A DNA stretch of 64,000 nucleotides from an uncultured Gemmatimonadales bacterium (GCA_963840215.1 CAWIYG010000006.1:158932-222931), one strand, 5' to 3'. Counted from the first letter of the stretch, positions 1 to 64,000 are shown. Program-made: numbers and translations. The notes: generated by a model from the sequence alone, not told the origin.

Positions 1-763
1 GAGCGCCATGCGGCGGGACTCGTCGTCGGGGTCGCGGACGGCGCGGAGCGCCGTCGCGCTGTCGAGGCCACCTGCCGCCGCGAGGGTGAGCAGCGCCAGC
101 CGGCGGACGACCGTGTCCGCCGACTCGAGCGCCGCCCGCCGGAGCAGGGTGACGCTCGCGGAGCGTGAGCGTGCCCGTGGCCCGACGCGCCCGGGCGAGG
201 GTGTAGAGCCCGTGGGTCAGGCCGGGCGTCTGCTGGGCCGCGAACCGCGGGCGGATGGCGTCCTCCGCGGACCGCGCCGCGGCCGTGTCGGGCAGCGGCA
301 GGCGACCCAGCGACTGCGCCAGGGCGTCCACGACGCGGGGGTCCGTCTCCGTCGCGAGCGCGCGGGTGAGTGCCGCGGCGGCCGCGCGGGTGCCGAGCGC
401 CGCGCCGCCGGTGTCGGCTTCGGTCCGCCGCAGCCGTCGGACGGACTGGGCCACGGCGGTCGCCGCCTCGGCGCGGACGCTCGGGGCCGGATCGGCGAGC
501 CACGGCAGCAGGCGCCGGCCGAGCTCCGGCCGCTGGACGCGTCCGAGCCCACGCACCGCCACCCGGCGCAGCAGCGTGTCGCTGCCGGCCAGCGCGGTGA
601 GCAGCGGCTCCAGGCCCTCGGGCCCGGTCCCGCGCGCGTCCTCCGCCACGAGCATGCGCTGGAGACGGGCGGAGTCCAGGGTGGCGGCCGCCTGCCCCGC
701 GGCGGGTGCTGCCCAGAGCGTCAGGACGAGTGCGGCGGCCAGCCGTGCGACGGGTGCGCGCAT
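1..763 (-). pseudogene. HEAT-repeat secreted protein, partial (3' end beyond window), one apparent frameshift near 155-165
   Basis: Minus-strand ATG at 763-761 gives [24 protein letters not shown] (signal peptide). HEAT-like units follow (LLRRVAVRGLG, DPAPSVRAEAA, DPRVVDALAQSLG). After ...GTLTLRE the sensible reading (VTLLRRAALESADTVVRRLALLTLAAAGG...DPDDESRRMAL) continues one base out of frame. Absent from the ORF track because no stop lies inside the window. Confidence 0.5.
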
Positions 764-837
764 CGAGAATCCGGGGCAAGGGTCGGAGGCACTACGAAGG
801 GGTGGTGGCGGAGTTCCACCCGTCCTATCGTTCGATC

Positions 838-1824
838 ATGCTGACCTCACGACCGCTGGGCACGCAAGGTCTGACCGTCTCCGCCCTCGGGCTCGGCTGC
901 ATGGGCATGAGCCAGTCGTACGGCACGCCGGACGACGCGGAATCCGTGGCCACCATTCACCGCGCCCTCGAGCTCGGCGTGACGCTGTTCGATACCGCCG
1001 AGGTGTACGGCCCCTATACCAACGAGTCGCTGCTCGGCCGCGCCCTCGCGGGCCGGCGCGACCGCGCCGTGATCGCCACCAAGTTCGGCTGGGAGATCGG
1101 ATCGAGCGGCCGGGGCGGACTCGACAGCCGCCCGTCACACATCCGCGAAGCGGTGGAGGGCTCGCTCGGGCGCCTCGCCACCGACCGCATCGACCTTCTG
1201 TACCAGCACCGGGTAGACCCGCAGGTGCCGATCGAGGACGTCGTCGGCACCATGGGCGAGCTGGTGGCGGAGGGAAAGGTGCGCTTCCTCGGGCTGAGCG
1301 AAGCGGCGCCGCAGACCATCCGGCGCGCGCATGGCGTGCACCCGATCTCGGCGCTGCAGAGCGAGTATTCGCTGTGGGAGCGGAGCCTGGAGGACGAGAT
1401 CTTGCCGGTGCTGCGCGAACTCGGCATCGGGCTGGTGCCGTTCAGCCCGCTCGGACGCGGCTTCCTGACCGGGACGGCGCAGCGGGCGGAGGAGTACCCC
1501 GAGGGCGACTACCGGCGCGGCGATCCCCGCTTCCAGGGCGCCAACTTCGACGCCAACGTCCGCGCCGCCGCCGTGGTCGGCGAGATCGCGGCGCAGCTCG
1601 GCGCGACCCCGGGCCAGGTGGCGCTGGCCTGGGTGCTGCACCAGGGGCCGGACCTGGTGCCGATCCCCGGCACCAAGCGCCGCCGGTTCCTCGAGGAGAA
1701 CGTCGCGGCGGCCGACGTGCGGCTCGGCGCCGCCGAGCTGACGCGCCTCAACGAGGCGCTTCCGCCCGCGGCCATCGCTGGGCCGCGGTACAGCGAGAGC
1801 ATGATGTCCTACATCGATCGCTGA
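838..1824 (+). CDS. aldo/keto reductase
   Basis: ORF 706..1824. ATG at 838 gives [32 protein letters not shown]-type motifs are present: [39 protein letters not shown]. Confidence 0.9.
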
Positions 1825-1846
1825 ACCGCGCTTCTCCTGGGTTGGC

Positions 1847-2416
1847 TCAGGGTGACTCGCGGTGGGGCCGGAAGACAATGTCGAACGCCGGCGTCCAGGT
1901 CTTGCCGCCATCCAGCGATCGCTCCGCCTTCTCGCGGACGTCGGCGCCCTCCTTCCACCAGATCCCCCGCAGCAGCGACGCCTTGCCGTCCGACGTGTGG
2001 TCCGGTCCCGTCAACACCATCCGCCCGCCCTCGAGCCCGCCGTTCAGCAGCAGCAGGCTTCCGCGGTTGGTGACCCAGCTCTGGTGCCACCGTCGGTGGA
2101 CGGGGTCGTAGAGACTGAGGCTCTCACCCGCCAGGCCCTTCGGCTCCTCGTACACCTCCCGCAGCGCGCAGCCGCCGAGCACGATGGTCACCCGATTCCG
2201 CGCCACGACCTTGGCGGGGTTGTCGATGTCGTACGTATCCCAGTCGCCCGCGAAGAAATCGAACTGGCGGAACTCCGGCGTCGCGCACGATTCTGCCGGT
2301 TCCGGCGATGCATCGCGGGGGCCTCGCCACGCCGCGGTCATGAGGACGAGAGCGCCGGTGGCGGCGACGAGCAGGAGCGCCGCGACACGTCGCGGCGGAC
2401 GGAGCAGGTAGGACAT
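1847..2416 (-). CDS. hypothetical secreted protein (DUF1579-like by memory)
   Basis: C-terminal 189 aa of ORF 1847..3841. Start MSYLLRPPRRVAALLLVAATGALVLMTAAW (signal/anchor), then non-repetitive sequence (FDFFAGDWDTYDI...WHQSWVTNRGSLLLLNGG). Begins 11 nt after the corrected alkA stop. Confidence 0.7.
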   Translation of the reverse strand: MSYLLRPPRRVAALLLVAATGALVLMTAAWRGPRDASPEPAESCATPEFRQFDFFAGDWDTYDIDNPAKVVARNRVTIVLGGCALREVYEEPKGLAGESLSLYDPVHRRWHQSWVTNRGSLLLLNGGLEGGRMVLTGPDHTSDGKASLLRGIWWKEGADVREKAERSLDGGKTWTPAFDIVFRPHRESP

Positions 2417-2426
2417 GCATCCCTCT

Positions 2427-61950: not shown

Positions 61951-61984
61951 GCTATCCGCGGCGACGCGAGGCTTACCCCGCTTG

Positions 61985-63097
61985 CTAGCGTCGCACCAGC
62001 TCCTCGTGCGGGCCCGCCGCATGTCGGTGATGAGCTCGTTCATCGCGGTGATGGCCGACATGCCCGCGATCCGGTGACGCAGGAGGCGGCTACGGCCAGC
62101 GCCTCCTCCGAAAGCAGCAGCTCCTCTCGCCGGGTGGCGCTCGCCACGAGGTCGATGGCCGGGAAGATCCGCCGCTCCGCCAGCTCGCGGCTCAGCACCA
62201 GCTCGCTGTTGCCGGTGCCCTTGAACTCCTCGAAGATCACCTGGTCCATCTTGCTGCCCGGTGTCCACCAGGGCCGTGGCGATGATGGTGAGCGAGCCGC
62301 CGCCCTGCGCGGATCGATCTTGCGGGCGCTGCCGAGGAAGCGCTTGGGCTTTTCCAGCGACTGGGCGTCCAGCCCGCCCGACAGCGTCCGGCCCGTGCCC
62401 TTCTCGACCGTGTTGTAGGCCCGCGCCAGCCGGGTGAGCGAGTCGACGATCAGCACCACGTCCTCGCCCAGCTCCACCCGCCGCCGCGCCCGCTCGAGCG
62501 TCAGCTCGGCCACGCGCACGTGCTGCGACGCGGGGTTGTCGAAGCTCGAGGCGACGACCTCGCCCACGCCCGGCCGCCTCCATCTCGAACACTTCCTCCG
62601 GCCGCTCGTCGACCAGCAGGATGAGCAGCGTGGCCTCGGGATAGGTTGGCGCTGACGCCCTCGGCGATGGACTGCAGGACCATGGTCTTGCCGGCCTTGG
62701 CCGGGGCCACGATCAGCGCGCGCTGGCCCTTGCCGAACGGGGCAGAGGATGTCGATGACGCGATTGGTGAAGTCGGGCTGGCCCTGGCGCATGAGGCCGG
62801 ACTCCAGCCTGATCTGCTCGTTGGGATGGATGGCGCCGAGGCGGGCTGAACTCCGGGCGGCCGCGGACTCTGTTCGGGGGCCGGCCGTTGATTGCGCTGA
62901 TATGCGTTCGAGCGTCGGGTCCGCGGCCCTTCCCGCCGGGACGGACCTCGCCCTCGATCTCGTCGCCCGCGCGGAGCTCGTGCTGGCGGATGAGCTCGCT
63001 CGCCGACGTGGATGTCGCCGCGGTCGGGGAGGTATCCCGTCTCTCGGCGCCGGAGAAACCCGCTGCCCCTGCCGGCAGCTCGAGAACGCCGAAGCAT
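61985..63097 (-). pseudogene. rho: transcription termination factor Rho, at least nine frameshifts; starts at the cold-shock-like RNA-binding domain (no N-terminal helix bundle)
   Basis: Pieces across ORFs 62501..63706, 62040..62792 and 61819..62592: GFLRRRETGYLPDRGDIHV, SELIRQHELRAGDEIEGEVRP, RLGAIHPNEQIRLESGLMRQGQPDFTNRVIDILCP, FGKGQRALIVAPAKAGKTMVLQSIAEGV (Walker A), LLVDERPEEV, GEVVASSFDNPASQHVRVAE, VVLIVDSLTRLARAYN, GGSLTIIATALVDTG, MDQVIFEEFKGTGNSELVLSRELAERRIFPAIDL. The ATG at 63097-63095 overlaps the sufE stop (TGATG). Probable end is ...GPHEELVRR, stop 61987-61985. Confidence 0.8.
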
Positions 63098-63520
63098 CAC
63101 GCGGCGGCGGCCACGGAGCGCTTGATCCGATAGAGAATGGCGGTGAGTCCCTGGGTCCGGGTCATGCCGAGCGTCTCGCTGAGGCCGAGCTGGTCGAGGA
63201 GGTCGTCCGGCACGCGGGCCACCTCGTCCGGCGCCGCGCCGTCGAGGCTCTTCGGGCCAAGAGGGAGATGAAGCCGCGTACCGTGGGCGACTCCGGCGGC
63301 ACGTCGGCGTGGATGTGGACCTTGCCCCCCTCGACCTCGACCCAGAGGAAGACGGGAGTCTGGCATTCGGGTACCCGATGGTCGTCACTGTCCGCTCCTT
63401 CTCGTCCTGGAGGCGCTCGGGGAGCGGCGGAAGCTTGCGCGAGTAGTCGAGCAGCGTCTCGAGCCGGGTGGTGCGATCCGCGGCCTTGAATCGGGGAATC
63501 AGCGTGTCGAGCGTGGGCAT
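63097..63520 (-). pseudogene. sufE: SufE-family cysteine-desulfuration/sulfur-acceptor protein, two frameshifts (about 63385, about 63255)
   Basis: [43 protein letters not shown] | [46 protein letters not shown] | [50 protein letters not shown]. The conserved PEC(Q) active-site Cys and the SufE C-terminal helix are both present. Confidence 0.75.
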
Positions 63521-63651
63521 GGTCGGCGTGGAGGAGGCGGTCGGACCGTTCGGCATTGGCCGAATACTCGCACGATCGGGTGCCGGAAGGTACCCCCGGG
63601 CCCGGTCTCCTCCGCCTTTCGCCACCGGTCCCCGGACGATATCGTTGAGGC

Positions 63652-64000
63652 ATGACTCCTTCCACGCTCGCTCGCCGGGCGCTCGTCCTCGCCCTCGCCG
63701 CGGCATCGCCCGTCGCGGCCCAGTCGCCCCGCCTGGGCACGATCTCGTTTCCGAACTCCGGGCCGCGAGCCGCGCAGCGGCCGTTCCTCCGCGGGGTCCT
63801 GCTGCTCCACAGCTTCGAGTACGACGATGCCGGCGCGGCCTTCCGCGAGGCGCAGCGCCTCGCGCCCGGCTTCGCGCTGGCCTACTGGGGGGAGGCGCTG
63901 ACGCTCACGCACCCGGTCTGGAACGAGCAGGACCTCGACTCCGCGCGTGCGGTGCTCGCCCGGCTGGCGCCGACTCCGGCGGCGCGCCGCGCGAAGGCGG
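63652..64000 (+). CDS. secreted TPR-like protein, 5' part only (runs off window)
   Basis: GAGG precedes ATG 63652, giving [94 protein letters not shown]... Open to the window end, so absent from the ORF track. Confidence 0.5.

Follow-up and report, generated by a model that had tools for sequence, protein, structure and literature searches.

Why should conserved bacterial genes, housekeeping genes such as rho among them, have their reading frames broken many times over within short segments of one contig, and be unbroken through the tens of kilobases between? The question is raised by a stretch of 64,000 nucleotides from an uncultured Gemmatimonadales bacterium (GCA_963840215.1, CAWIYG010000006.1:158932-222931), hereafter the window, by which we mean this whole stretch at its full length. 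An earlier note, made from the sequence alone, had reported at least 45 frame breaks clustered at both ends of the window, and had argued for local consensus error over real decay. Here we show that the breaks exist, that a few events aside they are absent from a sister assembly, that they coincide with strain divergence, that they avoid homopolymers, and that the inserted bases match alternative alleles. We conclude, with a probability of roughly 0.88, that they stem from the consensus of a long-read metagenome over mixed strains, in which both alleles were kept at polymorphic sites. The cluster is not a feature of biological interest, and the breaks have little biological import, the affected genes being almost certainly unbroken in the living cell; what it reveals is a clear quality problem in a publicly deposited assembly.

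Distribution and sign of the frame breaks

The window has a base composition of 71% G+C, and its nearest named relatives are Gemmatimonadales metagenome-assembled genomes (MAGs). Plain lists of open reading frames (ORFs) being of little help at this composition, frames were traced with a Viterbi model of codon positions, for which long ORFs from the window centre served as the training set. Two further approaches were Pfam scans of frame-stitched translations and a custom protein-to-DNA aligner permitting frameshifts, run with orthologs of related loci (L001, L008, L081, L082 and other homologs). All three agree with the sites of the first reading almost one by one; the breaks that moved are that of alkA, from about 2605 to about 2577, and that of the gene at 15822-16258, from about 16070 to 16112.

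Frameshift-aware alignment to orthologs, which the earlier note had proposed as a check, did not find continuous frames; it placed about 49 net frame changes (Table 1), slightly more than the number first claimed, of which 27 lie in 1-16.3 kb and the other 22 in 58.3-63.6 kb. The centre, 16.3-58.3 kb, had been described as unbroken and indeed holds no coding frameshift, a result with P ~2e-23 for these 42 kb if events had a uniform distribution. The Viterbi tracker picked up same-strand frame changes in runs at 4.9-9.6 kb and 58.2-63.7 kb. The left block is uneven—it is dense only over 4.9-9.5 kb, and it includes three intact genes, encoding an S15 peptidase (2 kb), DPP-IV (2.3 kb) and a MarR-GNAT protein.

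The events are also biased in sign, as expected from the claim that they are single-base insertions of one direction: 37 of the 49 are +1, as against 12 of -1 or +2 (P = 5e-4). A contrast between plus-strand genes, nearly all insertions, and minus-strand genes, mixed, had been noted as well. That contrast is visible, but it is due to position and not to strand, with the dense patches carrying +1 insertions and most other events being deletions. The DUF305 gene, which had been left as an unclear exception to the insertion rule, is a real one, since both of its events are -1. Across all of these junctions the stitched translations contain no in-frame stops, Pfam matches run full length (Table 1), and the repaired proteins align to their sister proteins at 89-99.5% identity.

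Table 1. Genes and regions of the window, with net frame changes, the events behind them, and Pfam matches that span the junctions of the stitched translations (matched positions/model length)
Feature	Coordinates	Strand	Net frame changes	Events and remarks	Stitched Pfam coverage
HEAT/PPIase gene, N-terminal 254 codons	1..763	-	1	+1 insertion (C) at 164	
Ada-AlkA fusion gene	1850..4038	-	1	+1 at ~2577, extra C in GCCGGGCGCC[C]GGGCCC	
TetR_N remnant, ~65 codons	4201..4330	-	1	frame hop ~4197; cut short by Ada-AlkA upstream region	
YCII-family gene	4897..5323	+	1	+1 insertion (G) at 4954	YCII 1-92/95
ECF sigma factor with DUF6596	5395..6683	+	2	+1 at 5837 (A) and 5959 (C)	Sigma70_r4_2 and DUF6596
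DUF305 gene	6742..7444	+	2	-1 at 7094 (GG shortened to G) and, in the last codons, at 7434 (AAA shortened to AA)	DUF305 1-151/151
LVIVD-repeat protein gene	7444..9476	+	16	densest patch; 15 of +1, one -1, within 7798-9422	
MliC-META (HslJ-like) gene	12516..13494	-	2	-1 at 13200 (window only); -1 at 12745 (also in sister)	
DPP-IV (S9 peptidase) gene	13501..15834	-		intact in window; reciprocal control	
DUF6924 gene	15825..16255	-	1	single-base deletion at 16112 (AAA to AA)	DUF6924 2-128/129
Clean central region	16300..58280			~4 substitutions per kb vs sister; no coding frameshift	
DUF1015 gene	58282..59556	+	3	+1 at 58695 (G), 58990 (G), 59382 (C)	DUF1015 1-325/325
serA (D-3-phosphoglycerate dehydrogenase)	59587..60810	+	3	+1 at 60100, 60177, 60443	2-Hacid_dh_C 1-178/178
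serC (phosphoserine aminotransferase)	60839..61950	+	5	+1 at 61263, 61506, 61656, 61745, 61871	Aminotran_5 1-361/371
rho	62005..63093	-	9	12-13 DNA-level indels, mostly +1	Rho ATPase domain
sufE	63100..63520	-	2	2-base insertions at 63254 (GG) and 63389 (TG); one 3-base insertion	SufE 4-120/121

Comparison with a sister assembly

Exact protein look-ups placed the window ORFs on a 575,134-bp contig of NCBI and the European Nucleotide Archive (ENA), evidently the source, and showed that many recur on contig_5804 (1,077,506 bp) of ENA assembly ERZ25039516, which we refer to as the sister assembly. Four of its loci (L081, L085, L086 and L084) overlap without conflict and together span window positions 1-63560. 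Nucleotide identity is 98.8% over 1-61971 and 92.2% over 61972-63560, the latter segment having 6% mismatches and 18 gaps, whereas the central 42 kb differ by 4.2 substitutions per kb (~0.4%). Window and sister belong to the same population. Genes that are broken in the window are called intact in the sister—LVIVD at 673 amino acids (aa), DUF305 at 235, YCII at 142, DUF1015 at 423, SerA at 406, SerC at 370, Rho at 373 and SufE at 150. Three cases depart from this: two lesions, the TetR remnant and the break at 12745, occur in both assemblies, and AlkA is broken in both, at different bases.

The DPP-IV gene offers the reciprocal comparison. In the window it has zero frameshifts relative to six of seven metagenome orthologs; in the sister, alignment with the window protein revealed 15 frameshifts, 10 of them +1, over the segment corresponding to window 13.9-15.4 kb. 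Elsewhere the sister has a single break in the sigma factor gene and a pair in a gene of 572 aa, and the window is intact at those sites. Because each assembly has its +1 clusters in different genes, the pattern indicates assembly error and not inherited decay. The preference of the earlier note for local consensus error is thereby supported, the sister having the affected genes intact and others broken.

Individual genes bear out the same picture. The HEAT/PPIase gene (694 aa in the sister) is identical to the sister protein at 251 of 254 positions with a one-base insertion placed at 163, and blastn against the sister places the extra C outside any homopolymer. For the YCII gene, the junction is crossed by the Pfam match, and alignment to the sister and L082 orthologs sets the one-base insertion at 4951; the gene call on the source contig (P0371) is truncated to 116 aa. 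The first junction of the ECF sigma factor lies inside Sigma70_r4_2 and the second at the start of DUF6596, with two one-base insertions relative to the 431-aa L082 ortholog, and the sister's own one-base insertion falls elsewhere, near window 6203. In the LVIVD gene, which differs from the sister by 25 indels and ~120 substitutions at the DNA level, the aligner recovered 16 frameshifts at identical sites whether P0001/L081 or L082 was the reference. The stitched protein spans 100% of 673-aa homologs, and the best of these, P0001, is itself on contig_5804 and is 87% identical to the rough stitch. The DUF1015 protein matches its sister counterpart (P0357) at 421 of 423 positions across three frameshifts; the L001 and L008 orthologs were also aligned. 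The worst-quality stretch is rho, with 92% nucleotide identity to the sister and a repaired protein at most 89% identical to any homolog.

The Ada-AlkA fusion, with Pfam domains Ada_Zn_binding, HTH_18 and AlkA_N, is a special case, in that its AERWRPWRAYA motif sits in another frame in both assemblies. Repaired AlkA aligns with E. coli AlkA (1DIZ) across the junction and through this motif. A single frameshift common to both assemblies was considered and rejected—the sister has two other extra bases, 4 and ~11 nt from that of the window, so that different bases 4 nt apart are inserted within the GC-rich GCCGGGCGCCGGGCCC.

Strain divergence, doubled alleles and rival explanations

Frame breaks are concentrated where the two assemblies diverge. 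Substitutions relative to the sister reach 41 per kb at 4.9-9.5 kb, 25 at 58.3-62 kb, 60 at 62-63.6 kb and 26 in the patch of the sister's DPP-IV breaks, and the density of indels rises with that of substitutions (Spearman rho 0.66, P = 4e-9). In these four patches, taken in the same order, 59%, 58%, 49% and 67% of substitutions fall at third codon positions, compared to 67% in the central region and an expectation of 33% for noise. Outgroup sequences agree with the window allele at 138 of the differing sites and with the sister allele at 109. The outgroups L001 and L008 came from a contig scan with the stitched DUF1015 protein, in which the top match was only 76% identical and neither the source contig nor the sister appeared, unbroken matches being favoured by the ranking; for LVIVD, a search for further outgroup DNA among metagenome loci yielded only a partial copy. 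Taken together, the third-position bias and the outgroup-matched alleles imply that the window carries a truly different haplotype in the patches, and that the substitutions there are mostly natural.

The inserted bases themselves are informative. Indel errors of the homopolymer type (as in Nanopore, 454 or Ion Torrent data) would extend existing runs; this candidate was rejected, as the inserted base equals its neighbour in only 11 of 41 single-base insertions, against 22.7 ± 3.1 expected. Only a few deletions (7094, 7434 and 16112) shorten homopolymers. Instead, where the sister base differs, the inserted base equals the outgroup allele of an adjacent site in 16 of 37 insertions, versus 5.5 ± 2.1 under a null matched by gene and codon phase (P < 1/5000). 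The same test on the sister's DPP-IV insertions, with the seven metagenome orthologs as outgroups, gave 12 of 14 versus 4.5 ± 1.8 (P < 1/3000). The earlier attribution to patches of low coverage or quality thus stands as far as consensus error is concerned, but not as homopolymer or simple low-coverage noise, given that the inserted base behaves as a second allele placed beside the first.

These observations suggest how the breaks could have arisen. Co-occurring strains would differ by 2.5-6%, and not by the usual 0.4%, at ~4.9-9.5 kb and from 58.3 to at least 63.6 kb, and a consensus or polishing step would have worked from a mixed pile of reads in these divergent segments. At some polymorphic sites both alleles may then have been written in succession, with neither chosen, and each site doubled in this way would add one extra base, producing successive +1 frameshifts in genes whose cellular copies are unbroken. 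Doubled alleles would explain why the sign is constant, why the insertions lie outside homopolymers, why they fall together with strain divergence and why their places differ between the two assemblies. Collapsing haplotypes or strains during polishing produces consensus errors at heterozygous or polymorphic sites and a mosaic consensus, and the window is alike in that its inserted base is the alternative allele of an adjacent site; here, the mixture and the program would be the presumed counterparts.

The source assembly is most likely a long-read metagenome. Contig sizes, the Flye-style name of the sister contig and the soil lineage suggest Nanopore metagenomes; a literature search on the run and assembly accessions found nothing. 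Pipelines for soil Nanopore MAGs use Flye and one round of Medaka, and high microdiversity has been reported in such data (PMC12313526), so that the errors of the window may trace to pipelines of the Flye/Medaka type. Truncation by frameshift is a recognised error class in long-read metagenome assemblies (PMC13087279, PMC9262707): as in the window, single-base indels that are specific to an assembly, and more severe in complex soil communities, truncate conserved genes including housekeeping genes, as seen in IDEEL-type truncation tests. The classic account of such errors blames homopolymers and low coverage, whereas the insertions in the window avoid homopolymers, are nearly all +1 and lie in strain-divergent patches.

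Several points weigh against the reading of doubled alleles. The sister represents a slightly different strain, and its intact genes are therefore not strict proof for the strain of the window. We infer, and do not see directly, the two-strain read mixture, as we do the sequencing platform and the exact step at which alleles were doubled in polishing. The outgroup allele is seen at 16 of the 37 insertions only, and the remainder may reflect another kind of error. Plain noise must contribute in the rho stretch, where the third-position share drops to its lowest value and the repaired protein is the most divergent. Finally, not every event is an artefact—the deletion at 16112, seemingly part of the pattern, is also present in a contig assembled from the k-mers of a sequencing run.

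The first alternative is plain noise in a consensus of low coverage or low quality, that is, few reads with random or homopolymer indels and no mixture of strains. The errors are patchy, quality falls toward the right end, where mismatches, gaps and the weakened third-position bias of 61972-63560 all coincide, and two events that do not belong to the insertion runs, those at 7094 and 7434, shorten homopolymers. Random read noise would, on the other hand, give none of the three signatures described above: avoidance of homopolymers, a match to the neighbouring site's alternative allele at about three times chance in two independent patches, and patch substitutions that are mostly at third positions and common to outgroups. 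As a general account of the breaks, we consider noise unlikely.

Genuine pseudogene clusters, with dozens of frameshifts truly present in LVIVD, DUF1015, serA, serC, rho and sufE, are less probable again, and we regard them as very unlikely. Real decay, as in Mycobacterium leprae and Rickettsia, is marked by stop codons, larger deletions, a deletional bias that is general to bacterial pseudogenes, and relaxed codon constraint, and is common to close relatives. The window resembles such reductive genomes in having many disrupted genes in one region, and some decay in that region seems real, inasmuch as the 12745 break and the TetR remnant occur in both assemblies and the 16112 deletion recurs in a k-mer contig of run ERR11593888. 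The dense patches, though, show none of the hallmarks: genes with 3-16 frameshifts each are free of in-frame stops and of larger deletions; the bias among codon positions is kept (49-59% third position vs 33% if unconstrained); the +1 bias is opposite to the deletional one; and the housekeeping genes rho, serA and serC are hit repeatedly. Moreover, a strain 0.4% away has the genes intact and a like cluster in another gene, and the doubled-allele signature has no mutational rationale under decay. In the TetR remnant, MliC-META and DUF6924 the hallmarks of decay may be present.

It is more improbable still that the dense patches are real in another sense, as kilobase-long +1 tracts in a living strain, for example from localised error-prone repair or recombination that copied both strands of a mismatched heteroduplex; if so, the doubled alleles would be a mutational and not a software footprint. 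Programmed +1/-1 frameshifting (as in prfB, dnaX and IS elements), known cases of which rely on a single slippery site in each gene, conserved among orthologs, or other recoding can practically be dismissed: it shares with the window the need for a frame change to read a conserved protein and the common +1 sign of most events, but the window has up to 16 sites per gene, a number in one gene that fits no known recoding, in heterogeneous contexts with no common slippery motif evident among those listed, and orthologs including the sister strain lack the sites and read each protein in a single frame.

Consensus error from doubled alleles has practical consequences. Annotation of the public contig already truncates genes, YCII being one example, and any scoring of gene content would count the essential genes rho, serA and serC as absent or as pseudogenes. 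The signature can be screened for—clustered non-homopolymer +1 insertions in patches where strains diverge, the inserted base being the alternative allele of the neighbouring site—in other long-read metagenome assemblies, and repair without short reads might be possible.

Probably genuine lesions, the clean centre and other features

Three lesions are probably genuine, because the TetR remnant and the 12745 break are found in both assemblies and the 16112 deletion in a k-mer contig. The TetR_N remnant covers Pfam positions 1-41 of 47, with helix 4 (QAALANLEIL) in the next frame; the remnant is identical in window and sister, which show no indel and one substitution over 4000-4450, and we take it to be probably a genuine gene remnant. 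In the MliC-META gene, the MliC, 104-aa and META pieces correspond to one protein of ~300 aa in homologs P0305 (298 aa) and P0309 (310 aa). Over the META domain (12516-12760), both assemblies are without 41 codons present in P0305, including the conserved MAC motif, and the gene is probably truly decaying in this lineage. Two other interpretations of this gene were discarded: the frame change at 12762/12763 is not a gene boundary, the fused homologs showing a -1 break within MliC-META, and an insertion at 13072 is not an error of the window, the -1 near that position belonging to the sister.

The third lesion, in DUF6924, is probably a genuine strain-specific frameshift. Run ERR11593888 is represented by three k-mer (Logan) contigs, each of them located away from the dense patches. 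The first, L170, is 100% identical to window 15292-16859, including the DPP-IV part (15292-15834), and has the same 16112 deletion, which splits the gene into 75 + 79 aa. The others, L087 (window 34596-38038) and L169 (9482-10776), match the window at 99.97% and 100%, respectively, and all three follow the strain of the window rather than that of the sister. L169 begins at the margin of the dense patch, 6 nt past the stop codon of LVIVD. Two k-mer contig ends (9482 and 15292) thus fall at edges of strain-divergent patches, as would be expected if the sample held mixed strains there.

Within the clean centre, every same-strand frame change falls where the gene calls of the sister place a boundary between genes, and 17 window ORFs are exact full-length proteins in the public collection. 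The L001 and L008 orthologs each align as one unbroken segment over 46.7-58.2 kb. Indels relative to the sister form three groups only—intergenic ones, gaps at the 3' end of an FMO-like gene, and two owned by the sister—and those whose net length is not a multiple of three are intergenic or the sister's own, and nothing else. The FMO-like gene (23860-24942) has 57 nt fewer in the window than in the sister, at 24928-24939 in its 3' end, the difference being a multiple of three made up of gaps of 11, 17 and 29 nt inside a GC-rich repetitive stretch; the ORF at 23749-24939, with an upstream ATG start, has no exact entry in the protein collection. The sister's own indels are direct duplications in the 572-aa gene (53917-55635, minus strand), 14 nt TGTCCCTGCGCACG and 11 nt CGCTCGGCTGA at window 54983 and 55116, which cut the gene into 274 + 311 aa and are an error of a different kind from the single-base insertions.

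In the right block, the intergenic region between serC and rho (61971/61972) is without ~160 bp that are present in the sister (sister sequence 64616-64775). In this extra sequence CCGCCTGA is repeated in tandem about ten times, and there is also an inverted repeat rich in G+C, GAGGAGGGGGGATCGG...CCGATCCCCCTCCTC; lying between the convergent serC and rho genes, the inverted repeat is possibly a terminator serving both. Two further features of the centre were recorded. Adjacent paralogs at 28999-31797 (932 aa) and 32103-34556 (817 aa) encode glyoxal-oxidase-like proteins with Big_1 and Kelch domains and share ~76% nucleotide identity across their last 2 kb. A nonhomologous end-joining cluster (50680-53735, minus strand) encodes Ku (279 aa), a LigD primase-polymerase (364 aa) and an ATP-dependent DNA ligase (334 aa); its genes are all intact, and identical or nearly so between both assemblies.

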